Shown here: positions 11,408 through 28,325 of the stretch, piece by piece | Layout of the letters: the number at the start of each line of letters is the position of its first letter | Position numbering within the stretch: the stretch's first letter is position 1 | DNA from: Acidimicrobiia bacterium | GTDB taxonomy: Bacteria > Actinomycetota > Acidimicrobiia > Spongiisociales > UBA11373 | DNA length: 64,000 nt | Direction of reading: 5' to 3' | NCBI GenBank assembly: GCA_041551965.1 | Contig: JBFELU010000002.1 | Span: 5,829 to 69,828, forward strand | The notes under the pieces: model-generated | Database searches by the model: none | Told to the model about the DNA's origin: nothing | What the model saw: only the letters and a program-made list of their open reading frames with translations | Made by a program: the position numbers and the translations under genes

Positions 11408-14400
11408 TCAGCCGCCAACGGTGATCGTGAAGATCTGCACGGCCGAAACGTCGATCCCACCGTCGGCGGTGCCGCCGTCGTCGCGGATCCGGATCTCGAG
11501 GGTGGCCGTGCCGATGCCGACCGCGACGGGAGTGAAGGTGAGGGTCCCATCACCGGCCACTGCGGGCAGCACATCGAAGAGACCCGGGTTGTCGTTGGCA
11601 GTCACTTCGAAGGTGAGCACCTGCCAGGCCTCATCCGGGGGACCGGCGACGATCCCGGTTCCCCAGGCGGCCGAGTAGGCGCCCGAACCTTCGGTCACCG
11701 TCACGTCGGGACCCTTGGTGAACCGGGGAACGTCGTTCACCGGCGTCACCACGATGGTGAGCATCACGGTGGGAGAGGTGTCCTCGCCGCCGTCTGCGGT
11801 CCCGCCGTCGTCGCGGAGCCGGATACCGATGAAGGCGGTGCCGGCGGCGTCGGCGGCGGGGGTGAAGCTCAGCGTGCCGTCGAGGGCGACGGCCGGGGGC
11901 GTGGCGAACAGGTCGGCATTGGAGTTGGCCACGACCTCGAAGGAGAGCGCCTGGCCGGCCTCGTCGGCCGGACCGGCGGTCATGCCGGTGGCCCAGGCCG
12001 CGGCATGGGCGCCCGAGTCCTCGGCGATCACCACGTCGAAGCCCCGATCGAAGGCGGGGGCGTCGTTCAACGCGCCGACCGCCACCGTGACCGTGGCGGT
12101 GGCGTATCCCCCGAGACCGTCGGTGATCGAGTAGGTGAAGGTGTCGGTGCCGGAGAAGTCGGCCGGAGGCTCATAGCGATAGCTGCCGCCGCCCACATCG
12201 GTGACCGTGCCGCCCTGAGCGGTCGCCACATCGAATCCCGACAGCGTCACCGGATCCAGATCGGCATCGGTGTCGTTGGCCAGCCAATCGCCCGCGTCCG
12301 AGAACACGATGGCCCCGTCCTCGAAGACCGGGAAGGGTCCGTCGGAGGTCGCGACCGGCGGGTTGTTCGTGGTGGCGTTGTTGGCGCCGCCCACGCTCGT
12401 CACCCGGGTCCCGAAGGCATCGGTGTCGATCGTGAGGGCCGCAGCGGCACAGGTCGCCGCCCCGGAGGTTGCCGGCTCCCAGCAGAAGCTGTCGTCGGCG
12501 TCCTGACCGTTGGGGGCGAGAGACAGCGATTGGCCGAACGCGACCGGGATCAGCGCCCCCTCGTTGTTGGGCAGCGGATCCCAGACCCCGAGGGCGTCGG
12601 GCGGGTTTCCGTTGCGGTTCGCCGCAGTGTCGGGCCCCCAGGCCACGAAGTCGACCAGTTCGTATCCCTCGTCGTACAGCCACAGCTCGTCGCCGGCGGA
12701 ATCGAGGAGCGTGGAGCCGCCGGCCCACAGCTCGAGATCGGTCCCGCCCACCACGTTGGTGAAGCCCGGGTTCGTCGTGGTCTGGTCGACCCCCAACCAC
12801 AGCACCGCATAGCCGCCCGCCGGGATCACGCTCCCGCCGGGGAAGGCATAGGTGAACGAGGCGGGAGCGTCGAAGGACCCGGTGATGTGGTCCGAATCGG
12901 ACAGCATCCACCCCGACACGTCGAGCGGGTGCCCGGAGGCGTTGTAGAGCTCGACGAACTCGTCGTTCTCGATGATGCCTTCCAGTCCCGTGCTCTGCTC
13001 GAAGAGAACCTCATTGATCACGGCCCGGCCCGCTTCCGGCGACAGGACGTAGTCGGTCACCGTCACGGTGACGGTCGCCGTGTCGGTCAGCGCACCGTCG
13101 GTGACGTCGTACGTGAAGGTGTCGACCCCGATGAAGGTGCCGTTGGGGGTGTAGGTACACCCGTTGGCGTCACATGTCACGCTGCCCTGAGCGGTGGCCG
13201 TCGGTCCGGACGGCACGATGCTGAGAGCGTCGCCGTCGGCGTCGGTGTCGTTGTCGACCAGTTCGGCGGCCGGGATCACCAGCGTGGCGACGAGGGCCAC
13301 CTCGAAGTCGGCCGCCGTGTCGCCGCCGTCGGGATCATCACCGGCCAGCGGGGCGTCGGCGACCGGGGTCACCGCGATCAGCACGGCGCCGGTGGCCGGA
13401 TCGGTGCCGTCGGTGACCGAGTAGGTGAACGTGTCGGCCCCGGCGAAGTCGGCGGGCGGGTCATAGCGGTACGACCCGGCGCCGAGATCGGTGACCGTGC
13501 CCCCGGCGGCGGTGATCGCATCGAACCCGGTGAGGGTGATGGCGCCGCCCTCGATGTCGGTGTCGTTCCCCAGCCAGTCGGTGGCCGCGGTGAAGGTGAG
13601 CGGGGTGTCCTCGGCGGTGGTGTACCAATCGCCGGCGGCGTTGGGGGCGTCGTTGACGGCCGACACCGTGACGGTGACCGTCGCGGTATCGCTGTCGGTG
13701 CCGTCGCTCACGGTGTAGGTGAAGGTGTCGGTCCCGCCGAAGTGGGCCGGCGGGGTGTAGGTGTAGGTGCCGTTGCCGTGGTCGACGACGGACCCGCCCG
13801 CGCTGGAGATCCCGTCGAAAGCGCTCACCGTGAGCGGATCGGCGTCGGGATCGGTGTCGTTCCCCAGCCAGTCGGTGGCGGCATGGAACAGCTTGGGAGT
13901 GTCCTCGTCGGTGGCCGCCGAGTCGTCGGTCGCTTCTGGTGGGTCGTTGACCGCACCGACGCTCACCGTCACGGTGGCGGTGTCGGTGCCGCCTGCTCCG
14001 TCGGACACCGTGTAGGTGAAGGTGTCGCTGCCGTTGAACCCTGCCGCCGGGGTGTAGGTATAGGTGCCGTCGAGGTTGTCGACGATGGTGCCGCCCGCGG
14101 TCGACGCGGCATCGAACGCCGTGATGGTGAGCGGGTCGTTCTCGGGGTCGGTGTCGTTCCCCAGCCAATCGGTCGAGGCGGTGAAGACCTTGGGGGTGTC
14201 CTCGTCGGTCGAGGCGGTGTCGTCGACGGCATCGGGCGGATCATCGACGGCGGTGACGGTCACCGTGACGGTGGCGGTGCCGGTGTTCCCGGCGGCGTCG
14301 GTGGCGGTGTAGGTGAAGGTGTCTTCGCCGGAGAACTCGGCGGCCGGGGTGTAGGTGTAGGAGCCGTCCAGGTTGTCGACGATGGTGCCGCCTTCCTTCG

Positions 14401-17398
14401 AGGCGGTGTCGAACTCCTTGATCGTCAGCGTCTCTCCATCGTCGTGGGTGTCGTTCCCCAGCCAGCTCGTCGAAGCGACGAAGGTGAACGCAGTGTCCTC
14501 GGTCGTCGTGGCGGTGTCGTCGACGGCCTTCACCGGATTGACAAACGGGTCGACCGTGACCGTCACCGTTGCCGAGGCACACTTGCCACCGGTGTCGCAG
14601 ATCTTGTAGACGAAGGTGTCGGTGCCCTCGAAGCCGTCGTCGGAGGTGTAGGTGACCTTCCCGTCTGAGGGGACGGCGGTCCCGTCTCCGGGCTGCCCCT
14701 TGATGCTCAAGGTGGCCGCATCGAGCTCACCGTCGATGTCGCTGTCGTTGGCGAGCACATCGACGGTCACCGGCTCTCCCGATTCGGTGGTGGCCGTGTC
14801 GGCCACGGCCGTCGGTTTGTCGTTCACTTCGGTGATGGTGATCGTGACGGTTGCCGAGGCGGTGCCGCCGCGCCCGTCCGAGATCGTGTAGCCGAACGTC
14901 TGAGTGCCGAAGTCCTCCGCGTCCGGGGTGTAGGTGAAGGTGGTCCCCGTCCTGGTGAGCGTCCCCTTCTCCGGATCGGTGCTCGAGGTGATGGTGAGCA
15001 AGTCGCCGTCGGGATCGGAGTCGTTGGACAGCGGAGTGATGACGACCGGTCCTCCGTCCTCGGCGACCGTGGCCGCGTCGTCGGCCGCCGACGGTGGGTT
15101 GTTGGGGTCCTCCTCGACCGTGACCTCGATGGTCACCACGGCCGAGGCCGTCCCGCCGTTGCCGTCGTCGATCACGTAGCCGAACGTGTCGAGAATGAGC
15201 CCGCTCTGGGTGGGCCCGAAGACGGGGGGCGTGTACAGGCAGGCGCCGGCCTCACACGACACGGTGCCGCCGAGCGCCGAGAACGAGTCCGGCGTGGGAG
15301 TGAGCGTATCCCCCTCCGGGTCGCCGTCGTTGGTGAGGATGTCGATTGTGACGGCGACACCTTCGATGGTTGCGCCACCGTCGGGCTCGGCAAAGGGAGG
15401 ATCGTTGACGGGTGCGACCGTCACGGTCACGATGCCTTCGGCGCACGCTCCACGCAGGTCGCAGACGCCGTAGAAGAAGGTCTCGACGCCGGACACCTCC
15501 GGGTCGGGCACGTAGCGGAGCGCACCGTCGAGGGGCATCGCCGTGCCCAGCGTCGGGGGGACCGCCACGAACAGGGTCCCCGGATCGAGTTCGTCCTCGG
15601 GGTCCTCGTCGTTCGACAGAGCCGGGATGACGACCGGCACGTCTTCGTCGGTCTCGGCCGAGTCGTCACCGACCATCGGAGGGTCGTTCACCGGGAGGAC
15701 CTCGATCATCACGGTCGCCACGCCGCCCAACCCGGCGACGTTCTCCACGCGGTAGCGGATCTCCGCCATGCCGAACCAGTTCGGCTCCGGCGTGAAGAGG
15801 ATGCCCTCGGGCAGCACCTCCGTCGTGCCGTGCTCGGGGCCCACGATGACGACCAGGGTCGCCGGATCGAGGCCCAGATCATCGAGATCGTTGGCGAGCA
15901 CGTCGACGAGCACCGGCACGTCCTCGTCGATCACGGCCTCGTCGTCCACCAGGCCGGGTGGTGCATTCGGCGACGAAGACGAGAGCAAGAGCTCGATGAG
16001 AGCCACCGGTTCGCCCTCCGGTCCCATGATGAGGACCGCCAGCCGGTCCTCACCGTCGAAGCCGGGGCCGGGCGTGTACGAGAGGATGCCACCTCGGATC
16101 GTCGCGGTCCCCCATGTCGGAGCATCCCAGATCTCTGCCGCCAGCCCCGCCGCGAGTTCCGACGGATCGAGGACTTCGATGTCGGTCGTCTCCTCGAACA
16201 GCACCCCGATCTCCACCTCCGCCCGTCGGGCATCCCCGAGCTGGATCAGCGGAACGGTCGTAGTGCTGGCGATCGTGACTTCTTCAGCTGGCAGCGGCGG
16301 GAGAGAGATCTCCGGTTCCACATCGGGGGGAGCGATCACCCCGGCACCGGCCAGAGCCAGTGCCGCCGAGGCCGCCACCGACGCCATGCCCACTCCGGCG
16401 CCTGCGCTCCGGAGGAACGGGAGCTGACCGAGCAACGAAGCGGGCCCGGCAACCCAGCGCAGCCGGCTCGGGGCGATGCGCAGGAAAGCCCGGACCACAT
16501 CGGCGTCGAATTGCCCGCCGGCGTTGCGGGCCAGTTCCTCGCGAGCCGCCGCCGCCGACAGGGGCTTCTTGTGGGATCGGCCCGAGGTCATCACGTCGAA
16601 GGCATCGGCAACCGCACAGATGCGGCCTGCCAGCGAGATCTCCTCGCCGGTCTTGCCGTCGGGGTACCCGGTTCCGTCGAAGCGTTCGTGGTGCTCGCCG
16701 ATCGCCCCGGCCCAGTCGCCGAGCCACTCCCGGAGCGGGCCGCACAACTCGAGGCCGTGCTGCGGATGCTGCTCGATCTTCGCCCACTCGGCATCGGTCA
16801 AGCTTCCGGCCTTGCCCAGGATTCCTTCGCTGATTCGAAGCTTCCCGATGTCGTGGAGGGTGGCCGCCCACCCCAGCTTCCCAAGTGATGCTTCATCGAG
16901 GCCGAGCTCTCGGCCCATCAACTCTGCATACGCCGCCACCCGGCCCCGGTCGCCGAACCGGCCGTGCTGACGTACCGCACTCGTGAGCAACTCCCCCAGC
17001 GCACCGTCGAGATCTCCGGGATCCAGGTTGCCGAGTCCGGCCAGATGATCCTCGACGGATCTTCGCGACCGCCGTGCGACCTGCAGACGTGACGGGGCTT
17101 CGCCGGGGAACTCGAGAGTCATCCCCAGCAGCGACGCCAGCGGTCCCAGGGGCCGAAGCAACGTTCGGATCGCAAACAGGCCGGCACCCGATGCCGCGAC
17201 CACGGCGCCCCACCACCCAGCCTGCTGGAGCAGACCGTCGGGGGCCGGCGCGAACCGAGCGGCGGCGACTGCAGCACCGGCGGCGCCTGCCACCGGCAAG
17301 AGCGCCGTCAGCGCCCGCACGCCGCGTGCCGGCCACGGACGCTTCTGCCACCGTTTGGCCGCGCCCCCGGATTCCTGAGGGACTTGATCCGTCATCAC
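11408..17398 (-). CDS. Giant multidomain membrane protein: N-terminal 2 TM helices, cytoplasmic HD-GYP phosphodiesterase domain, third TM helix, then ~1600-aa array of cadherin-like/VCBS-type tandem repeats with an inserted lamin-tail domain (LTD)
   Basis: Single uninterrupted 1996-aa ORF. Hydrophobic helices at about aa 27-48 and 60-80. HD-GYP signatures: LHDIGK (aa ~181), HPQHG, and EHHERFDGTGYPDG (aa ~236), spanning roughly nt 16483..17056. A third hydrophobic segment follows (GVGMASVAASAALALAGAGVIA, aa ~334-356). About 12 repeats of ~95 aa are delimited by VNDPP, VNDAP, VNDKP and VDDPP motifs, with ...TDWLGNDTD...DGTYTYTP..F.G.DTFTYTV.DG....TATVTVTV..VND.P in each. An LTD (VINEVLFEQSTGLEGIIENDEFVELYNASGHPLDVSGWMLSD) lies at about nt 12636..13019. 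GC content and codon usage match neighbouring genes. Confidence 0.8.
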   Translation of the reverse strand: MMTDQVPQESGGAAKRWQKRPWPARGVRALTALLPVAGAAGAAVAAARFAPAPDGLLQQAGWWGAVVAASGAGLFAIRTLLRPLGPLASLLGMTLEFPGEAPSRLQVARRSRRSVEDHLAGLGNLDPGDLDGALGELLTSAVRQHGRFGDRGRVAAYAELMGRELGLDEASLGKLGWAATLHDIGKLRISEGILGKAGSLTDAEWAKIEQHPQHGLELCGPLREWLGDWAGAIGEHHERFDGTGYPDGKTGEEISLAGRICAVADAFDVMTSGRSHKKPLSAAAAREELARNAGGQFDADVVRAFLRIAPSRLRWVAGPASLLGQLPFLRSAGAGVGMASVAASAALALAGAGVIAPPDVEPEISLPPLPAEEVTIASTTTVPLIQLGDARRAEVEIGVLFEETTDIEVLDPSELAAGLAAEIWDAPTWGTATIRGGILSYTPGPGFDGEDRLAVLIMGPEGEPVALIELLLSSSSPNAPPGLVDDEAVIDEDVPVLVDVLANDLDDLGLDPATLVVIVGPEHGTTEVLPEGILFTPEPNWFGMAEIRYRVENVAGLGGVATVMIEVLPVNDPPMVGDDSAETDEDVPVVIPALSNDEDPEDELDPGTLFVAVPPTLGTAMPLDGALRYVPDPEVSGVETFFYGVCDLRGACAEGIVTVTVAPVNDPPFAEPDGGATIEGVAVTIDILTNDGDPEGDTLTPTPDSFSALGGTVSCEAGACLYTPPVFGPTQSGLILDTFGYVIDDGNGGTASAVVTIEVTVEEDPNNPPSAADDAATVAEDGGPVVITPLSNDSDPDGDLLTITSSTDPEKGTLTRTGTTFTYTPDAEDFGTQTFGYTISDGRGGTASATVTITITEVNDKPTAVADTATTESGEPVTVDVLANDSDIDGELDAATLSIKGQPGDGTAVPSDGKVTYTSDDGFEGTDTFVYKICDTGGKCASATVTVTVDPFVNPVKAVDDTATTTEDTAFTFVASTSWLGNDTHDDGETLTIKEFDTASKEGGTIVDNLDGSYTYTPAAEFSGEDTFTYTATDAAGNTGTATVTVTVTAVDDPPDAVDDTASTDEDTPKVFTASTDWLGNDTDPENDPLTITAFDAASTAGGTIVDNLDGTYTYTPAAGFNGSDTFTYTVSDGAGGTDTATVTVSVGAVNDPPEATDDSAATDEDTPKLFHAATDWLGNDTDPDADPLTVSAFDGISSAGGSVVDHGNGTYTYTPPAHFGGTDTFTYTVSDGTDSDTATVTVTVSAVNDAPNAAGDWYTTAEDTPLTFTAATDWLGNDTDIEGGAITLTGFDAITAAGGTVTDLGAGSYRYDPPADFAGADTFTYSVTDGTDPATGAVLIAVTPVADAPLAGDDPDGGDTAADFEVALVATLVIPAAELVDNDTDADGDALSIVPSGPTATAQGSVTCDANGCTYTPNGTFIGVDTFTYDVTDGALTDTATVTVTVTDYVLSPEAGRAVINEVLFEQSTGLEGIIENDEFVELYNASGHPLDVSGWMLSDSDHITGSFDAPASFTYAFPGGSVIPAGGYAVLWLGVDQTTTNPGFTNVVGGTDLELWAGGSTLLDSAGDELWLYDEGYELVDFVAWGPDTAANRNGNPPDALGVWDPLPNNEGALIPVAFGQSLSLAPNGQDADDSFCWEPATSGAATCAAAALTIDTDAFGTRVTSVGGANNATTNNPPVATSDGPFPVFEDGAIVFSDAGDWLANDTDADLDPVTLSGFDVATAQGGTVTDVGGGSYRYEPPADFSGTDTFTYSITDGLGGYATATVTVAVGALNDAPAFDRGFDVVIAEDSGAHAAAWATGMTAGPADEAGQALSFEVVANSNADLFATPPAVALDGTLSFTPAADAAGTAFIGIRLRDDGGTADGGEDTSPTVMLTIVVTPVNDVPRFTKGPDVTVTEGSGAYSAAWGTGIVAGPPDEAWQVLTFEVTANDNPGLFDVLPAVAGDGTLTFTPVAVGIGTATLEIRIRDDGGTADGGIDVSAVQIFTITVGG

Positions 17399-18752: not shown

Positions 18753-19619
18753 CTACTCGCCGGCGGCGCCCTCGTCGATCTCGGCGAGACCGCAGTCGAC
18801 GAGAGCCTCGTCGAGTGACTGGCCGCCGAACTGGACCCGTTCGTAGAGGACCACGGCCCGGATCTCCTCTTCGGAAAGGGCGCCCTGGAAGCCGGGCATC
18901 TGGGCACCGCTGCCGCCGACCGGCTTTTCGGTGGCCCCGTAGGTCGACTCGGGCCAGTCGGCCGTGCCGAGGGTCACCCAGTCGACCTGAGCCTGGCACT
19001 GGCCCGGAGGGAAGGTCTGCAACAGGGCCCCACCGGTGAATCCGGGGAAGTTGCCTGCACCGCCCCCGCCCTCACCGTGGCACGCGGCACAGGTGGCGTA
19101 TTCGAGGCTCCCGATCGAGAAGAAGTCGGTCAACGAGAGCCCGTACGGGCTGCCGTCGCAACCCACGGCGACGCCCGAAACCGGATCGACCGCCAGCCGC
19201 CCGGCATCGCCGCAGTTGGGGCCGTTGGGGAAGAAGAGGGCATAGCCGATGGCAAAGGCCGGCACGATCATGAACAAAACCACCAGCCAGCGAGGAATGG
19301 CACCGGCAGCCACCGCGTCCTCCTCGCTCTCGTAGCGGGGTTCCTCCTCGGAGATCACTTCGGGGGCCGGAGGAGCCTCCACTCCGATCACCTCGACCTC
19401 GGGTCCCTCGGCCGGGGCCGGGGCGGCCGGAGCCTCGCCGGTCGGCTCGGCGGCAGGTGCGGTGGATTCGGCGGGAGCAACCGCCTCGCCGCCCCCCCAA
19501 GCCGCCAGCACCGATTCCATGGAAACGCCCTGGGCCTTGGCCCGCGCCTCGGCGGAACGTAGCACCAGCACCTCGGGAGTACCGAGTGCGGCGGCTGCGG
19601 CGGCGAGAAGTTCTTCCAT
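18753..19619 (-). CDS. Membrane-anchored monoheme c-type cytochrome (CcoP-like)
   Basis: Single CAACHGE heme-binding motif and one TM helix (IPRWLVVLFMIVPAFAIGYALFF). The start MEELLAAAAAALGTPEV at 19619 lies 4 nt after the upstream stop. The N-terminal segment EVLVLRSAEARAKAQGVSMESVLAAW resembles the repeat motif of the subunit IV-like protein at 23541. Confidence 0.8.
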   Translation of the reverse strand: MEELLAAAAAALGTPEVLVLRSAEARAKAQGVSMESVLAAWGGGEAVAPAESTAPAAEPTGEAPAAPAPAEGPEVEVIGVEAPPAPEVISEEEPRYESEEDAVAAGAIPRWLVVLFMIVPAFAIGYALFFPNGPNCGDAGRLAVDPVSGVAVGCDGSPYGLSLTDFFSIGSLEYATCAACHGEGGGGAGNFPGFTGGALLQTFPPGQCQAQVDWVTLGTADWPESTYGATEKPVGGSGAQMPGFQGALSEEEIRAVVLYERVQFGGQSLDEALVDCGLAEIDEGAAGE

Positions 19620-19623
19620 CGAG

Positions 19624-21531
19624 CTACTCCAGTCCCGCCACGTAGACGGCGAGAGCCGCCCGTTCATCGGCGGACAGGTGATCGAATGCCGGCATCGTCG
19701 ACCAGGGGCGGACCGCCCGCGGATCGGCCAGGTAGTCCGTCAGGGCGGCGGCATCGCCGGCGAACTGCCTGCTTCCGGCATGAGCGAGGTCGGGACCGAT
19801 CCGCATGAGACCCAGCAGATCGACGTCGTCGTTGGCATAGTCGCCGACCACCGAGACCGGACCCAGGCCCACGTCGGTCACGATCCCCCGCACCTGCTGT
19901 GTGTGGCAATACCAGCAACCTTCCCGGACGTAGAGGTCACGCCCGAGGGAACCGACGGGTTCCTCTTCGTGGGGACGGGTCGCCTCGGCGAGAAGCGAGG
20001 GAGGATCCCCGGTATCGGCCGCCGGGAGCACCACCACCGACACCGCCACGACGACGAACACCACTGCAATGCCGCGGAGGATGGTGCGGAGCGGAGCACG
20101 GGGGCCGTCGACCCCGACGTCCTCATCGAGACCGGCTCCGCCCAGCGTGACCAGGAAGCCGAGCAACAAGAAGAGGGCGGCGATGACCACCAGGCCGAGC
20201 CCGACCACCTGGGTCACCTGCAACCCCTCCAGTGGCACCACGGAGCTGCGAAAGGCTTCGCCGACATTGGCCGCCGAGTCCGGGCTCACCGACCCGACCC
20301 AGGTGTAGCCCTGCTGGAGACCGCCGATCCAACGAGAGGCGAGGACCGTGCCCAGCCCCGCCGCCAACGCCCCGATCTGCACGGCGCCGAGAGCACGGGG
20401 CCACGAACGATTCGAAGCCGCATGAACGGCGGCAAAGGCAAACGCCGTGGCGGCGCCGAAGAGCGCCAGGACCTCGACGGATCCCTCCCACAGTGTGAAG
20501 TGGAGGACCGAACTCGCACCGCGAAGCGACCCGATGAAGAGATGGATCGCCGTGATCACCACCAAGCCGACACCGATGACCGACAACTGGACCGATCGCG
20601 ACTCTGAGACCACCGCCCACCGCCCCCGCAGCGCGTGCGCGAAGTCGGCGGCGATGGTGAACGCCGCCACGATGAGACCGGCGCCGAAAAGCACCGGCAC
20701 CGTCTCGAGCCAGTCCGGCGTCGGTCCGTATTGGAGCTCCCGAGGAGCCATCCACAGCCAGGAGAAGAGCAGCGACCAGAAGCCGATCGCACCGAGCCGA
20801 GGATGAAAGGACCAACCGGTCGACCGGCCGACCAGGTAGTAGGCGATACCGATGCCGAGCATCGCCGGGCCGAGGCCGCCGATCACCGTGGCGGCGAACC
20901 GCCCCTGCAGTGCCGCAGGAACACCGTCGAGCCCGGGGATCGCTCCGGTCACGAAGCCCGCCCATTGCAGCCAAAGTCCGGCCACGACATACCAGGCCGC
21001 CGTGGGCAGCCCCTCGGTCGACCCCCGCACGGCTCGCGTGACGGCCGCGGCCATTGCCAACAAGCCGACTGCGACCGCGGCGTCGGACCACCAGGGGAGC
21101 TCGAGCAACCGGCCGCCGGCGCTCTCACCGAGGAGGATGCCCGCCGTTCCCGCGCCGAGACCACCCGCGACCGCCAGCAGGCCACCCACGGTCAATGCAG
21201 GGGCCGGCCGTTGCCCGCCGAGCCGGGGAATCACCCAGATCGCACCACCGGCCAGGCCGAGAGTGAGCCAACCCACCACCACGGCATTCAACGACGCGGG
21301 CAGGAGCCGCCCGTACGCGAGGTACTCCTCTCCGGCCAGGAAGTCGGGCCAAACGAGCTTGGCCGCAGCGGCGGCATACGCGGCCGAGCCGATCAACAGC
21401 AGCACGACGGCCACCGCCAGGTAGAGGCGGGCGATCCCGGACGGAGCCATACCGGTGGCGGCGTTCGGGGATTCGATGGTGTCGGTGGCGGGCACTCCCC
21501 CGTCCCTCCGTCGTGTGTCGGCCGAGAACAT
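19624..21531 (-). CDS. Fused CcoN-like 12-TM domain plus CcoO/FixO-like monoheme cytochrome c (cbb3-type oxidase-like; catalytic His ligands apparently absent)
   Basis: 636 aa from the ATG at 21531 (MFSADTRRRDGG); the upstream part of the 1027-aa track ORF is an artifact overlapping plus-strand genes. A ~450 aa polytopic domain with a WW motif is followed by a TM anchor, then RDLYVREGCWYCHTQQVRG...IGPDLAHAG...RPWSTMPAF. This matches the CcoO signature (IYIREGCYxCHSQ...GPDL...MPsY). The membrane domain has only 5 His in total, no HH pair, and the WW motif is followed by SD rather than GHNA. Confidence 0.72.
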   Translation of the reverse strand: MFSADTRRRDGGVPATDTIESPNAATGMAPSGIARLYLAVAVVLLLIGSAAYAAAAAKLVWPDFLAGEEYLAYGRLLPASLNAVVVGWLTLGLAGGAIWVIPRLGGQRPAPALTVGGLLAVAGGLGAGTAGILLGESAGGRLLELPWWSDAAVAVGLLAMAAAVTRAVRGSTEGLPTAAWYVVAGLWLQWAGFVTGAIPGLDGVPAALQGRFAATVIGGLGPAMLGIGIAYYLVGRSTGWSFHPRLGAIGFWSLLFSWLWMAPRELQYGPTPDWLETVPVLFGAGLIVAAFTIAADFAHALRGRWAVVSESRSVQLSVIGVGLVVITAIHLFIGSLRGASSVLHFTLWEGSVEVLALFGAATAFAFAAVHAASNRSWPRALGAVQIGALAAGLGTVLASRWIGGLQQGYTWVGSVSPDSAANVGEAFRSSVVPLEGLQVTQVVGLGLVVIAALFLLLGFLVTLGGAGLDEDVGVDGPRAPLRTILRGIAVVFVVVAVSVVVLPAADTGDPPSLLAEATRPHEEEPVGSLGRDLYVREGCWYCHTQQVRGIVTDVGLGPVSVVGDYANDDVDLLGLMRIGPDLAHAGSRQFAGDAAALTDYLADPRAVRPWSTMPAFDHLSADERAALAVYVAGLE

Positions 21532-21639
21532 TAGCCCCACCGTCCGAGGTCCACGCGGGGCGGGACGATTGTCTCGAACAGACCGGGCGGCGTCAAAGCA
21601 CGTCGGCCCGGTTCTCCCCCGGGCGGCGGGGCGCGTACA

Positions 21640-22290
21640 ATGTCGCCGCTTTCGGAGGAGGAGCCCGGCCGCGTGACCGAGCAGCAACGCGTCAGGATCG
21701 GCATCGCCGGAATCGGCGCAGGCTCGGTGCTGCTCGTGGTCGGGGTGCTGATCGCTCACTTCACGGGGCTGGCTGAAACCGACGGAGTGGGCCGGGAGAT
21801 CTACCCCCACATCCCCCGATGTCTGCCGTGGGAAGACGATCCCGCCAAGTGCTGGATGCTGCCGACGGGAGGGCAGATCATCGCGTTCGTCGGCAGCCAG
21901 CTGCTCCTGGCCGGAATCGTGCTCGGCTGGATCCTGGGGCGGCCCCTCACCTGGGCCCGGGCCTCCGCGGCCGCCATGCTTTTCACGGTCGAGGCGATCC
22001 TCCTCTTCGGCGTGGTCCCCAATCAGTGGCTCACGCTGGCGCAGGGGACCTTCGAGTGGACCGAGCAGAAGATCGCCTTCACGTTGCCGCGATGGCTCGT
22101 GCTCAACAACGAGGTCGGAATCTCCTACGGGGCGATCAAGGATCTCGTCTCCGGCGGCTACTCGGCGGTGATGCTCGGCGTGATCGCCGTCACCGCGTAT
22201 CAGTTGCAGGAGCGGGCCAAGCGCAAGGATGAGCCGCCGCCCCCGCGGATCTCGGCCTACGGTCGACCGATGGTGAAGGGAGAGCGCTAG
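21640..22290 (+). CDS. Integral membrane protein (4-5 TM), first gene of the bc-type complex operon
   Basis: Hydrophobic 216 aa protein with high GC3. An alternative GTG start at 21673 follows a GGAGGAGG Shine-Dalgarno; a TACAAT -10-like hexamer lies at 21635-21640. Confidence 0.6.
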
Positions 22291-22740
22291 ATGGCGAAGA
22301 CGGACGTTTGGTTCGAGACGCCCCCTTTCCGCGACGACTACCAACTCGCCGTCGTCGACGAGCAGTACCTTCTCGACGCCGTCAAGCCGAAGCAGTTCCT
22401 CCACATCGACCAAAGCGAGTGCATCCTCTGCGAAGGATGCGTCGACATCTGCCCGTGGAAGTGCATCCACTACCTCTCGATCGACGCCATCGCCGAATCG
22501 TCCAACGTCGACGACCCTCGCGCCGACGAGGGCAATCGGGGCTTCTTCGTGGTCGACGAGGACGAGTGCACCCGTTGTGCGCTGTGTGTGGACCGCTGCC
22601 CCACCGGCGTGATCAGCCTCGGCAAGTTCGCCGGGTCGCTGGCGGACCAGGCCGACCGGCGGGGTGTGGAGGCACCGTGGGAGGTCGACAGCGGGCAGCG
22701 CGACCACAAGAACGGCTACGCATACGGAATGCGGTTCTAG
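22291..22740 (+). CDS. 2x[4Fe-4S] ferredoxin-domain protein
   Basis: Two cluster motifs, [12 protein letters not shown] and [16 protein letters not shown] overlap with the upstream gene. Confidence 0.8.
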
Positions 22741-22748
22741 GAGGAGAG

Positions 22749-23528
22749 GTGGCAGACAACGGCAACGGCAGGGTGCGGCTGGGCGAACGGATCGCCCACG
22801 TGACCGATCGGGTCCGCGACAGCGAGGTGTGGACCAGCATCTTCCGGCCCGGATCCCCGTTCCGCAAGGGCTACGCCGACAGCCCCCGGAATCGGTCCTA
22901 CGTGATCATGAACAACGTGCTGTATCACCTCCACCCGGTGAAGGTGAAGCGGCACGCGGTGCGCCTCTCCTACACCCTCTGTCTCGGCGGGTTGAGCTTC
23001 TTCCTCTTCATCCTGCTCACGATCACCGGCATCTTCCTGATGTTCTATTACACCCCCACCTCCCCCGACGCCTACACCGACATCGCCGAGTTGTCGACCG
23101 GAGTGGCGTTCGGGCAGTTGGTTCACAACATCCACCGATGGGGCGCCCACCTGATGGTCATCACCGTGTTCCTGCACATGACACGTGTCTTCTATCACGG
23201 TGCCTACAAGCCGCCGCGGGAGTTCAACTGGGTGGTCGGCGTCGTCTTGCTCTTCCTCACCCTGCTCCTCTCGTTCACCGGCTATCTGCTCCCCTGGGAC
23301 CAATTGGCACTTTGGGCAGTCACGGTGGGCTCGAACATGGCCGGCTACACCCCGGTGTTCGGAAACCAGGTCAGCTTCGTCCTCCTCGGTGGCATCGAGG
23401 TCGGAGCCCCCACGCTTCTGCGTTTCTACGTGCTCCATGTGCTGGCTCTTCCGTTCCTGATCGTGATCTTCATGGCCGTCCACTTCTGGCGAGTGCGCAA
23501 GGACGGCGGCATCTCGGGACCCCTCTAG
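22749..23528 (+). CDS. qcrB: Cytochrome b6-type subunit of menaquinol:cytochrome c reductase (b6c/bc complex)
   Basis: GTG start at 22749 after a GGAGGAG Shine-Dalgarno. Strong similarity to PetB: FYCLGG..., [44 protein letters not shown]...[23 protein letters not shown], ending ...[10 protein letters not shown]. Confidence 0.9.
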
Positions 23529-23540
23529 AAAGGAGCGCAG

Positions 23541-24632
23541 TTGTCAGACATCCCCGAGTCGCTGCTTCGTCGCTCCGCCGAGGCCAAGGCCAAGGCCACC
23601 GGACGCCCCGTCGAGGAGATCCTCGCCGAGATGAAAGGCGAGGCCCCACCGGAGCCCGCCGAAGCGGCCCCGACCCCGACCGATGAGCCGGCCGCCGCTC
23701 CCGAGAGCGTCGCCGAAAAGGCGGCTGCGGCGACCGCGCAATTGCCGGATCACCTGTTGCGCCGCTCCGCCGAGGCCAAGGCCAAGGCCCAGGGACGACC
23801 GGTGGAGGAGGTCCTCGCCGAGTTGAAGGCGTCGGGCGCCGCCACCCCGCCCCCGCTACCCGAGAAACCCGCCCCCGAAGAGGCGGTTCCCGCGGCCGCC
23901 CCGGCGGCGCAGGCCGACCCCGAGCAAGCCGCCGCCGCCGCCAAAATGCCTGAGAAACTATTGCGCCGCTCCGCCGAGGCCAAGGCCAAGGCCACCGGAC
24001 GCCCCGTCGAGGAGATCCTCGCCGAACTCAAGGGCGAGGCCGCCCCCGCCGCACCGGCTCCCGCGGCCGCCCCGGCGGCGCAGGCCCCGGCAGCGGCCCC
24101 CGCGCCCCAGCCGAGCCTCCCCCCGGTGCCGGAGGGGGTCCGCACCCAGCGCCTCCTCACCGTCGTCAAGGCCAAGGCGATCCAGCAGGTCAAGGCCGAG
24201 CCCACCGACAAGGTGAACGTGTGGCCTCACCTGCTGGCCATCGAGTTCGTGGCCCTCTTGGCGGTGACCGCGCTCCTGGTGATCTTCTCGGTGTTCCAGG
24301 ATGCGCCGCTCCTCGAGCTGGCCAACCCGAACGACCAGCCCAATCCCTCGAAGGCTCCCTGGTACTTCCTCGGGCTGCAGGAACTGCTGTCCTACTTCGA
24401 CCCGCAGGTCGCCGGAGTGCTGATCCCCGGCCTGGGACTCGCCGGCCTGGCGATCATCCCCTACATCGACCGGAACCCCTCGACGCGGCCGGCCGACCGC
24501 AAGTTCGCCATCATGCTGTTCACGTTCTTCGTGGTGGCCTCGGCGATCCTCACGATCATCGGCTCCTTCTACCGGGGGAAGGGGTTCAACTTCACGTTCC
24601 CCTGGAGAGACGGGATCTTCTTCGACCTATGA
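23541..24632 (+). CDS. Subunit IV (PetD-like) of the b6c-type complex, with a ~210-aa N-terminal extension carrying three tandem ~65-aa repeats
   Basis: The C-terminal ~150 aa (KAPWYFLGLQELLSYF...PGLGLAGLAIIPYIDRNP) matches PetD/subunit IV. The N-terminal part carries three copies of LLRRSAEAKAKA[TQ]GRPVEE[IV]LAE[ML]K[GA]... Confidence 0.85.
   Translation: MSDIPESLLRRSAEAKAKATGRPVEEILAEMKGEAPPEPAEAAPTPTDEPAAAPESVAEKAAAATAQLPDHLLRRSAEAKAKAQGRPVEEVLAELKASGAATPPPLPEKPAPEEAVPAAAPAAQADPEQAAAAAKMPEKLLRRSAEAKAKATGRPVEEILAELKGEAAPAAPAPAAAPAAQAPAAAPAPQPSLPPVPEGVRTQRLLTVVKAKAIQQVKAEPTDKVNVWPHLLAIEFVALLAVTALLVIFSVFQDAPLLELANPNDQPNPSKAPWYFLGLQELLSYFDPQVAGVLIPGLGLAGLAIIPYIDRNPSTRPADRKFAIMLFTFFVVASAILTIIGSFYRGKGFNFTFPWRDGIFFDL
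23553..24041 (+). repeat. Three in-frame tandem coding repeats (~190-210 nt each) within the subunit IV gene
   Basis: Copies 1 and 3 share a run of roughly 50-60 identical nucleotides. The exact span was not determined, and the repeat boundaries differ (ctgcttcgtcgctcc versus ctattgcgccgctcc) (cgctccgccgaggccaaggccaaggccaccggacgccccgtcgaggagatcctcgccga), while copy 2 has diverged. All three encode LLRRSAEAKAKAxGRPVEE. Confidence 0.75.
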
Positions 24633-25405
24633 CCGTGCTCGTCATCGCCTTCGTCGCCATCGCCGTCGTCCTGGCGGCGGCCCTGTTCACCGTGGCGTGG
24701 CGCCGCGAGGACGCGGTGTCCGCTCCGGTCGAACGACCGAGGAGGGTGCGCCGCACCCGGGAGCCGGAACCGGCACCCGAGCCCGAGGCCGAGGAGGAGG
24801 TCCCGCTCGACCCGCTGGAAACACGGCCCGAGATCGACGCCGCCGGCTACGACGTCACGAGGAGACAGTTCTTCAACCGCGGCGTGCTCGGGGTCTTCGG
24901 AATCTTCCTGGCCCAATTCGGGATCGCCGCGCTCGCCTTCATGTGGCCCAAGCTCCGCTCCGGCGGGTTCGGCAGCAAGGTCAATGCCGGCAAGCTGGAG
25001 GACATCGAGAAGGAGGTGTTCCTGCCCGATGGCCGGATCGCTCCGCTCTTCGTCTCCGCCGCCCAGGCCTACGTCCTCCCGTTCCAGGGTGAGGTGGCCG
25101 GATCGTCATTCGAAGGCCTCCCCGTGGTGGCCGGCGGCTTGATCGCCTTGTGGCAGCGGTGTGTGCACCTCGGATGCCGGGTCCCGGAGTGCACCTCCTC
25201 CCAGGGCTTCGAGTGCCCCTGTCACGGATCGAAGTACAACTACCACGGCGAATACGAGGACGGGCCGGCACCCCGCAACCTCGATCGGTTCGTGGTCACT
25301 CTCAACGAGAACAACGAATTGATCATCGACACCGGCCAGGTGATCCAGACCGCCCGATCAACCACCAAGACGGCTGAGTACCCGCAGGGGCCGTCGTGCA
25401 TCTGA
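24629..25405 (+). CDS. qcrA: Rieske [2Fe-2S] iron-sulfur subunit
   Basis: CVHLGCRVPEC and CPCHGSKY Rieske boxes. N-terminal TM helix MTVLVIAFVAIAVVLAAALF. ATGA overlap with the upstream stop. Confidence 0.9.
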   Translation: MTVLVIAFVAIAVVLAAALFTVAWRREDAVSAPVERPRRVRRTREPEPAPEPEAEEEVPLDPLETRPEIDAAGYDVTRRQFFNRGVLGVFGIFLAQFGIAALAFMWPKLRSGGFGSKVNAGKLEDIEKEVFLPDGRIAPLFVSAAQAYVLPFQGEVAGSSFEGLPVVAGGLIALWQRCVHLGCRVPECTSSQGFECPCHGSKYNYHGEYEDGPAPRNLDRFVVTLNENNELIIDTGQVIQTARSTTKTAEYPQGPSCI

Positions 25406-25415
25406 GGAGCCGCTG

Positions 25416-26903
25416 ATGGGAATCGGTGCCTTCGTCCTGGCGCTGGCGGTGCTCGGCACGTTGGCGTGGCTGTGGTTCCTGGTGGGGTCGAGCCGGGTCC
25501 GCCGCCGCCGGGAAGCGCCGCCGGCCAATCAATCCCCTTTCATGACCGACGACGAGTTGGAGTCGCGACGGCTCAATTCCACTCTCGTCGGTGCCCTGGT
25601 CGCCAGCGCGGTGCTGGCGATCATCCTGCCCGTCTACTTCCTCGCCGAGACCGACCGCCAGGTGGCTTCGGTCGAGCACTTCGACGAGGTGGCGATCGAA
25701 CGAGGAGAGCACTGGTACGAGGAGTTCCAGTGCGGCGACTGCCACGGTCCGACCGGTGGAGGAGGAGGTGCCGACTACTTGGAGAGGCGCAGCGGCCTCA
25801 CCACATCGTGGGCGGCTCCGTCGATCAACGACGTCCTCTACCGCTATGACGCCGACGAGGTTCGCTACTGGCTGGTCTTCGGCAGGGCCGGCAGTCCCAT
25901 GCCCGCCTGGGGAACCGAGGGAGGCGGACCGCTCAACAGCCAGCAGATCGACGAACTGATCGCCTACCTCGACGCCTTCAGGATTCCCCAGGTGGAGGCG
26001 GTCTCCGAGGTCGAGGGTTCGGTGGCGAGAGAGCTCGCCCGGCTCGCCAACGCCGATGCCACCATCGCCGATGCGATCGATCGGCAGCGGGAGGAAATCC
26101 GGGCCATCGAGGAGGCACCGGCCGTCTATGCGGTGCTCTCCGACGTCGAGGAACGGCTGGCCGGGATCCTGGCCGAGACGTGCAGCGACGAATCAGCGGC
26201 CATCGTGGACAGGACCTGCGAGGAGGAGACGCCGGATCGAGACCGCGACGGTTTGCCGGACGAGGCCGAACGGCAGCTGGCGGAGCTCATCTCCTTCGTC
26301 GTGGCCGAGGCACCGCCCAGCGACGCCGCCGCCGCCCTGGAACGGGCGACGTTCGATCCGGATGCTGCGTTCTCGACGTCGGAGGGCACGACTCCGGTGG
26401 CCGACCTCGCGCTCGCCGAGGCCGTCGCCGGGGAGATCGCGACGATCGTTCGCGACCTCCGCTTGACGGTGGACTCTCAGGAACGCTTGCTGGAGACGGC
26501 AGCCGCCGGGCTCGAGTTCCTGGAGGAGGCTGCCGAGGAACGGCGCTTCGCCATCGATTTCGACGCCCTCGCCGTTGCCTTCGACGGCAACGTCTCCGAC
26601 GCCCGGCGCGGAGCCGCCCTCTACAACGCCTACTGCGCCCGGTGCCACACAGCCGGCTACTCGGCCGGGGTGGCATTCACGCAAGAGGCCGGCTCGGGTG
26701 GTTTCGGGCCGTCGCTGACCGGAGGCCGCTCGGTGGTTCAGTTCCCCGACCCGGCCGACCATCTCGGATTCATCGTCAACGGCTCCGAGAACGGGAAGGC
26801 CTACGGCGTCAACGGCGTGGGCCGGGGCTGGATGCCGGGATTCGGAGTGGTCCTCAGCGAGGAGGACCTGATGTTGATCGTCACGTTCGAGAGGACCCTG
26901 TGA
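25416..26903 (+). CDS. qcrC: Membrane-anchored diheme c-type cytochrome of the bc complex
   Basis: Two heme motifs, CGDCHG (aa ~106) and CARCHT (aa ~407), plus an N-terminal TM helix. An acidic Ala/Glu-rich segment of ~250 aa separates the heme sites. Confidence 0.85.
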   Translation: MGIGAFVLALAVLGTLAWLWFLVGSSRVRRRREAPPANQSPFMTDDELESRRLNSTLVGALVASAVLAIILPVYFLAETDRQVASVEHFDEVAIERGEHWYEEFQCGDCHGPTGGGGGADYLERRSGLTTSWAAPSINDVLYRYDADEVRYWLVFGRAGSPMPAWGTEGGGPLNSQQIDELIAYLDAFRIPQVEAVSEVEGSVARELARLANADATIADAIDRQREEIRAIEEAPAVYAVLSDVEERLAGILAETCSDESAAIVDRTCEEETPDRDRDGLPDEAERQLAELISFVVAEAPPSDAAAALERATFDPDAAFSTSEGTTPVADLALAEAVAGEIATIVRDLRLTVDSQERLLETAAAGLEFLEEAAEERRFAIDFDALAVAFDGNVSDARRGAALYNAYCARCHTAGYSAGVAFTQEAGSGGFGPSLTGGRSVVQFPDPADHLGFIVNGSENGKAYGVNGVGRGWMPGFGVVLSEEDLMLIVTFERTL

Positions 26904-27403
26904 TGCCGACCGGCCTGCGCCGCGATGAACGAGGGCTGAGCAGCCTCGAGTGGCTCGGCATCGTGTTGGCGGTGCTCATCCTGCTGTCGCTGATACCCCA
27001 GTTCCGGGCGGCACTGGACGTCTTCTACGAGAACCTGGTCGGCAAGAACAACGTGAGCCCCGACGGCGAACCGGCGCCCGGCGTCCTGGTCCGCGGTCTG
27101 ATCGTCGCCGTCGCCTCGCTGGCCGTGTTCGCCGGATCGGTCTACCTCATCAACTACACGAACCTGGGCCGGAGGCTCGCCTTCCTCGTGACCGGCACCG
27201 CCTTCTTCGGATTCCTGGCGGTCGTCGGCCTGCTCTACTCCCTCTACGCGCCGCGCGGGCTGCGGCCCACCTCGCTCGAGGGTCTCAACGCCTTTGAGCT
27301 CCGCATCCTCCCCGGGGCGTTGATGGTCGGATCGCTCATCCTGTTCGCCATGTTCCTCACCGCCCTCAACCGGTTCGAATCGGAGAGCGGGGACGACGAG
27401 TAA
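26903..27403 (+). CDS. Small polytopic membrane protein, last gene of the bc-complex operon
   Basis: 166 aa with 4 hydrophobic segments. The ATG overlaps the qcrC TGA (TGATG). High GC3. Confidence 0.6.
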   Translation: MPTGLRRDERGLSSLEWLGIVLAVLILLSLIPQFRAALDVFYENLVGKNNVSPDGEPAPGVLVRGLIVAVASLAVFAGSVYLINYTNLGRRLAFLVTGTAFFGFLAVVGLLYSLYAPRGLRPTSLEGLNAFELRILPGALMVGSLILFAMFLTALNRFESESGDDE

Positions 27404-27411
27404 CCGGGGCC

Positions 27412-28038
27412 CTAGGCGTCGGCTCCGGCCCGATGCAGGTAGTACGACAGCACCTTGAGCTCCGTCGACAGGTCGACTCGCCGCACATCCACGTCGTCGG
27501 GGACCTGGACGTGGGCGGGTGCGAAGTTGAGAATCGACTTGACACCGGAATCGGCGAGGAGGTCGGCCACCTCCTGGGCCGAGTCGGCCGGCGTGGTGAT
27601 CATCCCGATCGAGACCCGCCGTTTCTTCACCGCCTCCGCAAGCCTCTCGACCGGCTCGATCTCGAGTGAGTGGATGTGGGCCCCGACCTTGCCCGGGTCG
27701 CTGTCGAAGAGACCGACGACGACGAAGCCCTCCTCGGCGAATCCCCGGTAATTGGCGAGGGCGAGACCGAGGTTCCCCACCCCGACGATGGCCACCCGCC
27801 AATCCTGAGTGAGCCCGAGGGCCCGCCGGATCTCATAGCGGAGGTGCTCCACCTCGTAGCCGACGCCGCGTACCCCGTATGAACCGAGATAGGAGAGGTC
27901 CTTGCGGACCTTGGCGGAGTTCACCCCGGCACCGGCGGCGAGCTCCTCGCTCGAAATCCCCTCTTCGGAGACCCGATCGAGGACCTTCAGATACAGCGGC
28001 AGGCGCTGCACGGTGGCGCGGGGAACGGTCGGTTTCAC
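27412..28038 (-). CDS. rex: Redox-sensing transcriptional repressor Rex
   Basis: QRLPLYLKVL winged-helix N-terminus and AIVGVGNLGLALANY Rossmann NADH motif. GTG start. Confidence 0.85.
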   Translation of the reverse strand: MKPTVPRATVQRLPLYLKVLDRVSEEGISSEELAAGAGVNSAKVRKDLSYLGSYGVRGVGYEVEHLRYEIRRALGLTQDWRVAIVGVGNLGLALANYRGFAEEGFVVVGLFDSDPGKVGAHIHSLEIEPVERLAEAVKKRRVSIGMITTPADSAQEVADLLADSGVKSILNFAPAHVQVPDDVDVRRVDLSTELKVLSYYLHRAGADA

Positions 28039-28070: not shown

Positions 28071-28325
28071 TCAGCCGTAGCGGGCCCGCAGCATGGCCCG
28101 CAGCACCCGCAGCCTCCCGAACCGCCCCGCCAGCAACTCATCTCCCTCCGGTCCCAACACCACCGGGACCCGATCCCCGTAGCGGTCGGCGAGACCCTGG
28201 GCGTCGACGTCGATCACGTCGACCGAGACCTGGAGGCGATCCGCCCACTCGGCCACGTGAGGCCATGCCTCGTCGCACAGGGTGCAGCCCCGGCGGGTCA
28301 CGAAGGTGATCTTCCTCATCGGCAC
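28071..28325 (-). CDS. Glutaredoxin-like / thioredoxin-fold small protein
   Basis: 84 aa with a CTLCDEA (CxxC) motif near the N-terminus. Lies 32 nt upstream of rex and is probably co-transcribed with it. Confidence 0.7.
   Translation of the reverse strand: MPMRKITFVTRRGCTLCDEAWPHVAEWADRLQVSVDVIDVDAQGLADRYGDRVPVVLGPEGDELLAGRFGRLRVLRAMLRARYG

Follow-up and report, generated by a model that had tools for sequence, protein, structure and literature searches.

Why should the operon of a Rieske/cytochrome b complex begin with the genes of a small membrane protein and of a ferredoxin with two [4Fe-4S] clusters? This question is raised by a locus of an Acidimicrobiia bacterium (assembly GCA_041551965.1, contig JBFELU010000002.1), of which one stretch of 64,000 nucleotides (nt) with a G+C content of 67–70%, called here the window, was analysed; all positions are given in window numbering. 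The conservation of gene neighbourhood in related genomes suggests that the two leading genes very probably belong functionally to the b6c-type complex encoded behind them.

The plus strand between 21640 and 27403 holds seven co-oriented open reading frames (ORFs), whose identities were assigned with Pfam and NCBIfam. Gene 1 (21640–22290 as the longest ORF, 216 residues) encodes a membrane protein with four transmembrane (TM) segments, and gene 2 (22291–22740, 149 residues) encodes a NuoI-like 2x[4Fe-4S] ferredoxin with two complete CxxCxxCxxxCP motifs, matched by many Fer4 families. They are followed by the genes of a split cytochrome b6 (gene 3, 22749–23528 with a GTG start, 259 residues; PF00033 with 158 bits, PF13631), of subunit IV (SUIV; gene 4, 23541–24632 with a TTG start, 363 residues; PF00032), of a Rieske [2Fe-2S] protein (gene 5, 24629–25405, 258 residues; PF00355), of a dihaem cytochrome c with CGDCH and CARCH sites (gene 6, 25416–26903, 495 residues; PF13442, PF00034), and of a small 4-TM protein (gene 7, from 26900 or 26903 to 27403, 167 residues), which overlaps the cytochrome c stop. 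The same seven genes in the same order had been named in an earlier note made from the letters of this DNA, and the family models agree with it. The junctions are, in order, 0 nt (TAGATG), 8 nt, 12 nt, an ATGA overlap, 10 nt and a GTGA/TGATG overlap, and the gaps contain GGAG-type ribosome-binding sites, namely GGAGGAG in the 8-nt gap, AAGGAG in the 12-nt gap and GGAG in the 10-nt gap. The description of every junction as overlapping or tightly coupled is thus right as regards tight coupling, with no gap above 12 nt, but true overlaps exist at two junctions only. The scan of the operon for terminator-like sites on the plus strand revealed none.

The relation of the leading pair to the complex was approached through the scan of one genome per GTDB species, which returned 119 loci; 80 of them were kept, all from metagenome-assembled genomes (MAGs) and nearly all labelled Acidimicrobiia or Actinomycetota, and their synteny was read by tblastn with all window proteins. 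The order membrane protein, ferredoxin, b6, SUIV, Rieske protein, cytochrome c and small TM protein is kept wherever the contig is long enough, and its recurrence in 80 independent loci exceeds chance, with the ferredoxin gene sitting between the membrane gene and b6 in all but two lineages. Every membrane-protein homologue found adjoins the b6 operon on its upstream side, both in the 80 Acidimicrobiia loci and in four contigs of Acidimicrobiales (84/84). Between the membrane and ferredoxin genes the median distance is 0 nt, and 97% of loci have 20 nt or less there; between the ferredoxin and b6 genes the median is 50 nt and the largest distance 172 nt. The identity of the ferredoxin to the window protein (64–96%) is comparable to that of b6 (76–96%) and far above the values of the Rieske protein (44–91%), cytochrome c (37–87%) and the membrane protein (39–91%); SUIV is 42–90% identical, and the small TM protein, 43–96% identical, is present at the same place in nearly all loci. 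Outside the Acidimicrobiia and Actinomycetota labels three contigs were encountered, of which L023 (“Kiloniellaceae”) and L054 (“Gammaproteobacteria”) carry the full Acidimicrobiia-type operon and one “Gemmatimonadales” record supplies a single ferredoxin/membrane protein pair; these labels are most likely binning errors rather than cases of lateral transfer.

The Acidimicrobiales contigs contain a shorter form of the membrane protein, and in all four of them this form is followed by a 138-residue ferredoxin and then by b6. The three longer ones among these contigs continue with SUIV, the Rieske protein, cytochrome c and a membrane protein of 270–314 residues, to which gene 7 is partly homologous, and then directly with nuoA–D. 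Rex, the downstream neighbour of the window operon, is not adjacent in the three of these contigs that reach past the operon, and the upstream flank in one contig consists of haem-biosynthesis genes. Since the Acidimicrobiales operon has different neighbours, with nuo in place of Rex, the core association survives changed flanks. The gene-neighbourhood comparison of the pair with qcr-type genes, which had been proposed as a check in the earlier note, was therefore passed in the 80 loci and in 4/4 Acidimicrobiales contigs, and the pair was never seen in other contexts.

The position of the promoter points in the same direction. A –10 hexamer TACAAT and a Shine-Dalgarno sequence had been noticed previously and placed in the 108-bp divergent intergenic region (21532–21639); both signals are real and conserved, but they are not located fully within that region. 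The hexamer (21636–21641, plus strand) is kept in relatives and overlaps ATG 21640, and the Shine-Dalgarno sequence GGAGGAGG (21654–21661, plus strand) lies downstream of this ATG, inside the longest ORF and 11 nt before GTG 21673. Many homologues begin at the residue aligned with window codon 12, and when the upstream regions of related loci were aligned on this codon, an element of GCGTACAATG / GCATAGAATG type recurred about 35 nt before a GTG, TTG or ATG at this place, with a purine-rich block between; GGAGG-like purine-rich blocks at the equivalent position were recognised in many relatives by eye in the alignment, uncounted. Of 77 loci, 63 have a strict TACAAT/TAGAAT-type hexamer in the 100 nt that precede the membrane gene, mostly 30–45 nt before the start (mode 35–37), whereas random 112-nt segments of the same loci gave 0.8 (maximum 5). 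No –10-like hexamer was found between the ferredoxin and b6 genes (0/74 loci). The generic promoter scan gave zero plus-strand sites since the –35 element is poor, and for this reason the comparative alignment was needed to see the –10 element. According to the conserved hexamer, the Shine-Dalgarno sequence and the starts of homologues, the real start of gene 1 is likely GTG 21673, giving a product of 205 residues and an intergenic region of about 141 bp, while ATG 21640 of the longest ORF sits within the –10 element. Together with the compact junctions, the hexamer before the membrane gene and its lack before b6 suggest that the seven genes form a single transcription unit with the promoter directly before the membrane-protein gene; the claim of the earlier note that the pair goes with the complex III genes is upheld both by this and by the linkage.

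Which complex, then, is extended by this pair? The organisation is of split b6 type, where the 4-TM b6 is separate from the 3-TM SUIV and the Rieske gene is encoded alongside, in overlap with that of SUIV. The translation of b6 contains four haem-ligand histidines in the HRW...H and H...H pairs for haems bL and bH, and the haem-cn motif CLGG (CxGG; YTLCLGG in the window) is present in 67/67 loci covering the region. The CxGG motif of helix A serves for attachment of the covalent haem cn (ci) (PMC5600118), and attachment of haem cn to the b6 of this operon is predicted. The b6 protein passes the NCBIfam ExtP equivalog model (304.5 bits with a cut-off of 290) and fails the b6 subfamily model (216 versus 325), and its nearest solved relatives are cyanobacterial and chloroplast b6 with 166 bits versus approximately 80 bits for mycobacterial QcrB. 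The Qo motif of SUIV is APWY(F) in the window (APWYF) and in 61/61 loci covering the region, and the Rieske protein, with CVHLGC...CPCHGS boxes in its translation, is best matched in NCBIfam by b6f PetC with 57 bits, below the cut-off. Cytochrome c is membrane-anchored and has a long acidic linker between its two haem domains. Menaquinol is assumed as the substrate of the complex.

The designation of this operon as a b6c type of Firmicutes and Actinobacteria could not be kept. All actinobacterial models of the QcrCAB bcc complex failed (QcrB 109 versus 500, QcrA 17.6 versus 275, QcrC 24 versus 200; NF050120/NF050121/NF050122), and cytochrome b is split here rather than a long unsplit QcrB. The operon also departs from the Bacillus-type QcrABC by its order b6–SUIV–Rieske–c, by a SUIV without a haem c motif and by a separate cytochrome c instead of the SUIV–cytochrome c fusion. 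From the Geobacter ext operon it differs in that only cytochrome b passes its model (ExtP), with ExtQ and ExtS models giving 57 versus 150 and 16 versus 100, respectively. On these sequence criteria the complex belongs to the APWY/ExtP-like clade of split cytochromes b, to which Geobacter ExtP and a split cytochrome b from Ilumatobacter coccineus are also assigned and which is biochemically uncharacterised (PMC4122944).

Two of the core subunits have additional features. SUIV carries a cytoplasmic N-terminal extension of about 215 residues with three LLRRSAEAKAKAxGRPVEE repeats at 23565, 23757 and 23961; the motif of approximately 25 residues, (P-E/D-x)LLRRSAEAKAKA(T/Q)GRPVEE(I/V)LAE, has no Pfam match, and the relatives usually contain 1–3 copies, with none detected in 6/72. 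A motif of LLRRSAEAKAKAxG type occurs also once near the N-terminus of the divergently encoded CcoP-like cytochrome c (19565, minus strand), and the shared repeat may be a common docking element for a cytoplasmic partner or a supercomplex tether. The translation of the Rieske protein shows an N-terminal TM helix, a charged linker of about 60 residues, an internal twin-arginine motif TRRQFFNRG and a second hydrophobic or TM segment. In this it resembles the Streptomyces Rieske protein with its Sec-plus-Tat (twin-arginine translocation) dual targeting (PMC3471235).

The ferredoxin has a long inter-cluster loop between its two CxxCxxCxxxCP motifs and conserved termini, FETPPxRDDYQL at the N-terminal and NGYxYGMRF at the C-terminal end. 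No signal or Tat motif was seen in it, and the protein should therefore be cytoplasmic. The eight cluster cysteines together with C58 and H60 are invariant in the alignment of 25 diverse ferredoxin sequences, and no substitution of a ligand cysteine occurred among the 71 distinct ferredoxin sequences inspected. Among PDB entries the ferredoxin is most similar to polyferredoxin domains and NuoI, and these relatives include no subunit of a bc complex; a single-chain model from a shallow alignment reached a predicted local distance difference test (pLDDT) score of 45. The two complete cluster motifs and the long loop between them are features that the protein shares with NuoI (Nqo9/TYKY) and PsaC, both of which act as wires of clusters and are attached to a membrane complex on its cytoplasmic or stromal side; NuoI in complex I is located at the interface of the peripheral and membrane arms. 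The possibility that gene 2 is simply the NuoI of complex I displaced from the nuo operon was considered and rejected, because the genuine full-length NuoI (2424–3050) sits in the nuo operon of the window. With this NuoI the ferredoxin has 28% identity over 120 residues, its best score with a NuoI model is 40.3 bits with a cut-off of 113 (TIGR01971/NF004xxx, NCBIfam) so that it fails every NuoI model, and in contrast to NuoI it has its own conserved termini and is always encoded with b6c genes. By sequence it is a distant paralogue of NuoI.

The relatives of the membrane protein comprise 166 clusters in a collection of 5.8 billion proteins, all unnamed or “hypothetical” and mostly labelled Acidimicrobiia, and HMMER, run exhaustively against 1.84 billion representatives, gave 85 matches, the weaker of which are proteins of 137–165 residues covering TM2–TM4 and the tail. 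This short, 3-TM form comes from Acidimicrobiales MAGs; its family is the larger one, with 2,626 clusters, and hhalign shows it to be homologous to the long form (probability 99.6%). The model of the long form has four helices and a beta-hairpin in loop 3 (pLDDT 77), and by the positive-inside rule the protein is predicted to be N-in/C-in with both termini in the cytoplasm. The motifs RP-x-TWA, VPNQWL and the terminal S-x-YGRP-x-VK are the best conserved in both forms and lie at or near the cytoplasmic face in the predicted topology; the cytoplasmic C-terminal S-x-YGRP tail is invariant, as is His40, several Trp motifs (TWA, PNQW, EW) are conserved, and a conserved Cys pair in loop 1 would face outwards. 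Neither gene 1, for which DUF7139 is a sub-threshold match only, nor gene 7 has a family in Pfam or NCBIfam, and no model of Pfam (2025) or NCBIfam (2026) and no solved structure covers the membrane protein or this ferredoxin subfamily. The pair was correctly recognised in the earlier note as nonstandard for complex III.

With the cyanobacterial b6f complex and the b6c complexes of Bacillus and heliobacteria the operon shares the split cytochrome b with four histidines and the CxGG cysteine, the 3-TM SUIV and the Rieske protein. In contrast to them it has APWY in place of PEWY or PDWY as Qo motif and b6–SUIV–Rieske–c as gene order, the c subunit is a separate dihaem protein of 495 residues and not cytochrome f or a SUIV–c fusion, SUIV bears the 215-residue repeat extension, and three extra genes including that of the dicluster ferredoxin are present, with no PetG/L/M/N genes seen. 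Geobacter ExtP/ExtQ (NF040969/NF040970) are similar insofar as the b6 of this operon passes ExtP, while its SUIV has APWY and fails ExtQ. The Geobacter ext cluster combines the b/ExtO Rieske core with multihaem ExtKL/M/N/S, the porin ExtI and the rhodanese ExtH and has no ferredoxin (PMC5877670), while multihaem, porin and rhodanese genes are missing from the operon described here. Thus the lead from ExtP to the Geobacter selenite/tellurite operon was rejected, since that cluster has another composition and only the cytochrome b clade is shared (PMC5877670). A further analogy is with the R/b-2 and R/b-3 complexes of the anammox bacterium Kuenenia stuttgartiensis, where a CxGG-type short cytochrome b is combined with an Fe-S redox module on the cytoplasmic (n) side (PMC5600118, PMC12954380). 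There the association of the module is both genetic and biochemical, while here it is genetic, and the module consists of a 149-residue 2x[4Fe-4S] protein and a 4-TM (or 3-TM) protein. Multihaem and HAO-like partners are missing, Pfam finds no flavin (FAD) or pyridine-nucleotide (NAD(P)) domain in the seven products, and the closest gene for an FAD protein, of the geranylgeranyl-reductase family, belongs to the divergent operon. The phylum is different as well, and the physiology is probably aerobic or microaerobic respiration. By this analogy an n-side Fe-S module together with a CxGG cytochrome b would imply an extra electron path at the cytoplasmic face. The papers on the APWY clade and the ext cluster mention neither a ferredoxin nor this membrane protein for actinobacterial members (PMC4122944, PMC5877670), and no published description of the pair in an actinobacterial b6c operon was found, although the coverage was incomplete and prior mention is still possible.

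Two lineages lack an intact ferredoxin. In contig JAHLKU010000038.1 (10560–10760; L014) the ferredoxin gene is absent, and the stop of the membrane gene is followed after about 60 nt by the b6 start. In contig CAYXHU010000565.1 (350–700; L036) an in-frame deletion has left a 67-residue remnant without seven of the eight cluster cysteines, which retains the N-terminal FETP.LRD and the C-terminal CPTG...YGMRF segments; the termini of the ferredoxin probably have a binding role. Both lineages retain the membrane protein and the CLGG of b6, and as both are single MAG contigs an assembly artefact is possible.

According to these data we favour the following mechanism. The product of the operon is a quinol:cytochrome c oxidoreductase of the b6-type Rieske/cytochrome b kind, made of b6 for haems bL, bH and cn, SUIV with the APWY Qo site, the Rieske protein and dihaem cytochrome c, to which three lineage-specific accessory proteins would have been added in the class Acidimicrobiia. 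Two of these, the 4-TM protein of gene 1 and the small TM protein of gene 7, would be peripheral membrane subunits. The third, the NuoI/PsaC-like 2x[4Fe-4S] protein, would be held on the cytoplasmic face, where it might touch the membrane protein of gene 1 at the conserved cytoplasmic loop and the S-x-YGRP tail, and might also touch the N-terminal extensions of b6 and SUIV. The two clusters of this protein may serve as a short wire from a cytoplasmic low-potential partner, either a dehydrogenase or reduced soluble ferredoxin from 2-oxoacid:ferredoxin oxidoreductases, to the solvent-exposed haem cn/Qi site. Electrons would then flow inward from ferredoxin through cn/bH to menaquinone, in the thermodynamically easy direction, and a ferredoxin:quinone reductase side-activity would be placed atop the Q cycle. 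The inward direction is favoured because it is exergonic and because NuoI and PsaC are precedents for membrane-docked wires. It is favoured also because haem cn in b6f is exposed to solvent at the n-side surface and has been discussed, not without dispute, as the place where electrons from ferredoxin enter (PMC7908018). Further, in the tricarboxylic acid cycle of related Acidimicrobiia (UBA5794) 2-oxoglutarate:ferredoxin oxidoreductase replaces 2-oxoglutarate dehydrogenase (PMC12008989), and these bacteria would need a route for ferredoxin re-oxidation. The anammox complexes, with n-side Fe-S/NAD(P) modules on CxGG Rieske/cytochrome b cores, are a further precedent (PMC5600118, PMC12954380).

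Accessory n-side subunits, with the ferredoxin wiring haem cn/Qi to a cytoplasmic partner, are taken as a whole to be the best explanation, tentatively; the complete inward wire is held with more reserve, and the docking of the dicluster subunit directly over haem cn, with low-potential electrons of the cytoplasm entering the quinone pool directly through the Qi/haem-cn site, is doubtful. Several points weigh against this explanation. To judge from the two lineages without functional ferredoxin, the core complex can do without the clusters and the membrane protein does more than anchor the ferredoxin, because both contigs keep this protein and CLGG. Partner genes such as KOR/POR and FNR were not found among the Pfam-scanned window genes (approximately 1.9–11 kb and 28–41 kb), and the evidence for the ferredoxin and the 4-TM protein as putative subunits is genomic linkage. 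In addition, complexes of APWY type may run in reverse according to Kao and Hunte, and that would change the logic (PMC4122944).

Four alternatives to this explanation were weighed. The clusters could carry electrons outward: quinol at the APWY Qo site would give one electron to the Rieske protein and cytochrome c and the other through bL, bH and cn to the [4Fe-4S] clusters and a cytoplasmic acceptor, the ferredoxin pool or NAD(P)+ via a partner, which would replace quinone at Qi. Such bifurcation is the scheme proposed for anammox Rieske/cytochrome b complexes with n-side redox modules and CxGG cytochromes b (PMC12954380, PMC5600118), and the APWY clade is uncharacterised and suspected of nonstandard operation (PMC4122944); the conserved and tightly coupled operon would also suit it. 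We regard it as unlikely, however, since the flow would be uphill, against the membrane potential and toward low-potential clusters, no NAD(P)/FAD subunit is encoded, and two lineages tolerate the loss of clusters. The C-terminal HF-x-R-x-RK-x-G-GISGPL of b6 and WP..LL..F of SUIV resemble what we take to be Qi elements of b6f, and a presumably working Qi site speaks against this scheme as well. Rather than a through-wire, the ferredoxin might be a permanent n-side cap, structural or redox-sensing, where the state of clusters (O2, reactive oxygen species, iron) modulates activity or stability of the complex. The termini FETPPxRDDYQL and NGYxYGMRF are exactly the parts kept in the cluster-less remnant of L036, pointing to a cluster-independent role, and the extra invariant Cys58 and His60 lie beside cluster 1. 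The invariance of all eight ligand cysteines argues for functional clusters all the same, and two clusters approximately 12 Å apart typify wires such as NuoI and PsaC rather than sensors, so the cap too is improbable.

The pair could also be absent from the mature complex and act in its biogenesis, in haem cn attachment or Fe-S/haem delivery, the ferredoxin supplying reducing power and the Trp-rich membrane protein handling haem. For this speak the invariant His40 and the conserved Trp motifs, the apparent co-transcription of the pair with a CxGG cytochrome b6, and the circumstance that, outside the CCB factors of chloroplasts and cyanobacteria, we know of no dedicated maturation system for haem cn. 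Nevertheless, the pair was found only in Acidimicrobiia, the three contigs with other labels aside, while CxGG cytochromes b exist in a large number of phyla (PMC5600118); the CLGG cysteine persists in L014 and L036 with no functional ferredoxin, no similarity to CCB1 or other Pfam families was seen, and the strong conservation of the ferredoxin points to a stoichiometric subunit, which makes a biogenesis role distinctly unlikely. The least likely possibility, and a very improbable one, is that genes 1 and 2 form an independent membrane-bound redox module which shares the promoter through a common respiratory regulon. The region is indeed a respiratory gene island (nuo, the cbb3-like operon, the geranylgeranyl-reductase-family gene), and ferredoxin-to-b6 gaps of 50–170 nt are found in about half of loci; but the pair is linked to b6 in all 84 loci and never found away from it, no internal promoter signal was detected (0/74 loci), and the membrane protein contains no cofactor-binding motif for a standalone quinone reductase.

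The surroundings of the operon are also respiratory. Divergent from it on the minus strand is a CcoN–CcoO-like fusion gene (19624–21531), in whose CcoN part all six metal ligands are replaced in comparison with Pseudomonas stutzeri CcoN (3mk7_A; H60 to S, H207 to A, H257/H258 to R/E, H345/H347 to S/E), while the CcoO-like part retains the CWYCH haem site. With these replacements the usual binding of haem b, haem b3 or CuB is impossible, and the protein has the appearance of a pseudo-oxidase scaffold. It is followed by the CcoP-like cytochrome c (18753–19667, minus strand), and beyond that on the same strand by the geranylgeranyl-reductase-family gene, a 1996-residue repeat protein (11408–17398, minus strand) and nuoA–J. 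The repeat protein, located between the reductase-family gene and nuoA, has an N-terminal TM/HD-GYP-like region (HDIGK...) and many cadherin- or VCBS-like acidic repeats, and is unusual within a respiratory island. The complex I operon (1915–11236, minus strand) includes nuoA (10820–11236), nuoD, nuoE, nuoG (4176–6632), nuoH, nuoI and nuoJ. The CcoNO-like and CcoP-like genes are divergent upstream in most Acidimicrobiia loci; among the Acidimicrobiales contigs no CcoNO-like fusion gene was called (0/4), and a CcoP-like cytochrome c occupies the divergent position in 3/4, one of which has also an uncharacterised 369-residue gene. In Acidimicrobiales (L086, L087, L089) nuoA directly follows the b6c operon on the same strand, and the b6c–nuo neighbourhood is therefore older than that with Rex or the cbb3-like genes.

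Downstream, the redox sensor gene rex (27412–28038, minus strand; 302 bits) lies convergent to the operon, 8 nt past the last stop, just as had been described before, and is followed on its own strand by a glutaredoxin-like (DUF836) gene (28071–28325, minus strand); Rex is found downstream in most loci and is convergent there with a few exceptions. The search for the Rex operator TGTGAAN4TTCACA with up to 3 mismatches gave 4 matches against 6.7 expected and none near the b6c promoter, although a divergent operator could escape it. Because this search gave no operator near the promoter and 3/3 Acidimicrobiales contigs that reach past the operon lack Rex next to it, the adjacency is probably local synteny and not dedicated regulation.

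In summary, the Rieske/b6 core of this operon is known, while the additions to it, namely a presumed n-side dicluster subunit, the membrane protein that goes with it and the small TM protein at the end of the operon, look new, conserved and apparently class-wide. Throughout a class of Actinomycetota that is abundant in the environment, the b6c operon is led by the genes of a small dicluster Fe-S protein and of a dedicated membrane protein. This corrects the expectation that Actinomycetota use the QcrCAB bcc complex alone, and two protein families are defined for which Pfam and NCBIfam have no model, that of the b6c-associated ferredoxin and that of the 4-TM/3-TM “YGRP-tail” protein. The Rieske/cytochrome b complexes are among the best-studied energy converters, yet the role of haem cn and electron uptake on the n side are still debated (PMC7908018), and the anammox complexes, the only others with an n-side redox module, are mechanistically unsettled too (PMC12954380). 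The operon offers a compact system for probing the n-side electron path. If the proposed mechanism is true, the ferredoxin:quinone reductase activity that has long been debated for cytochrome b6f would exist in Acidimicrobiia in a natural and permanent form, and the presence of haem cn in non-photosynthetic b6-type complexes would be explained.

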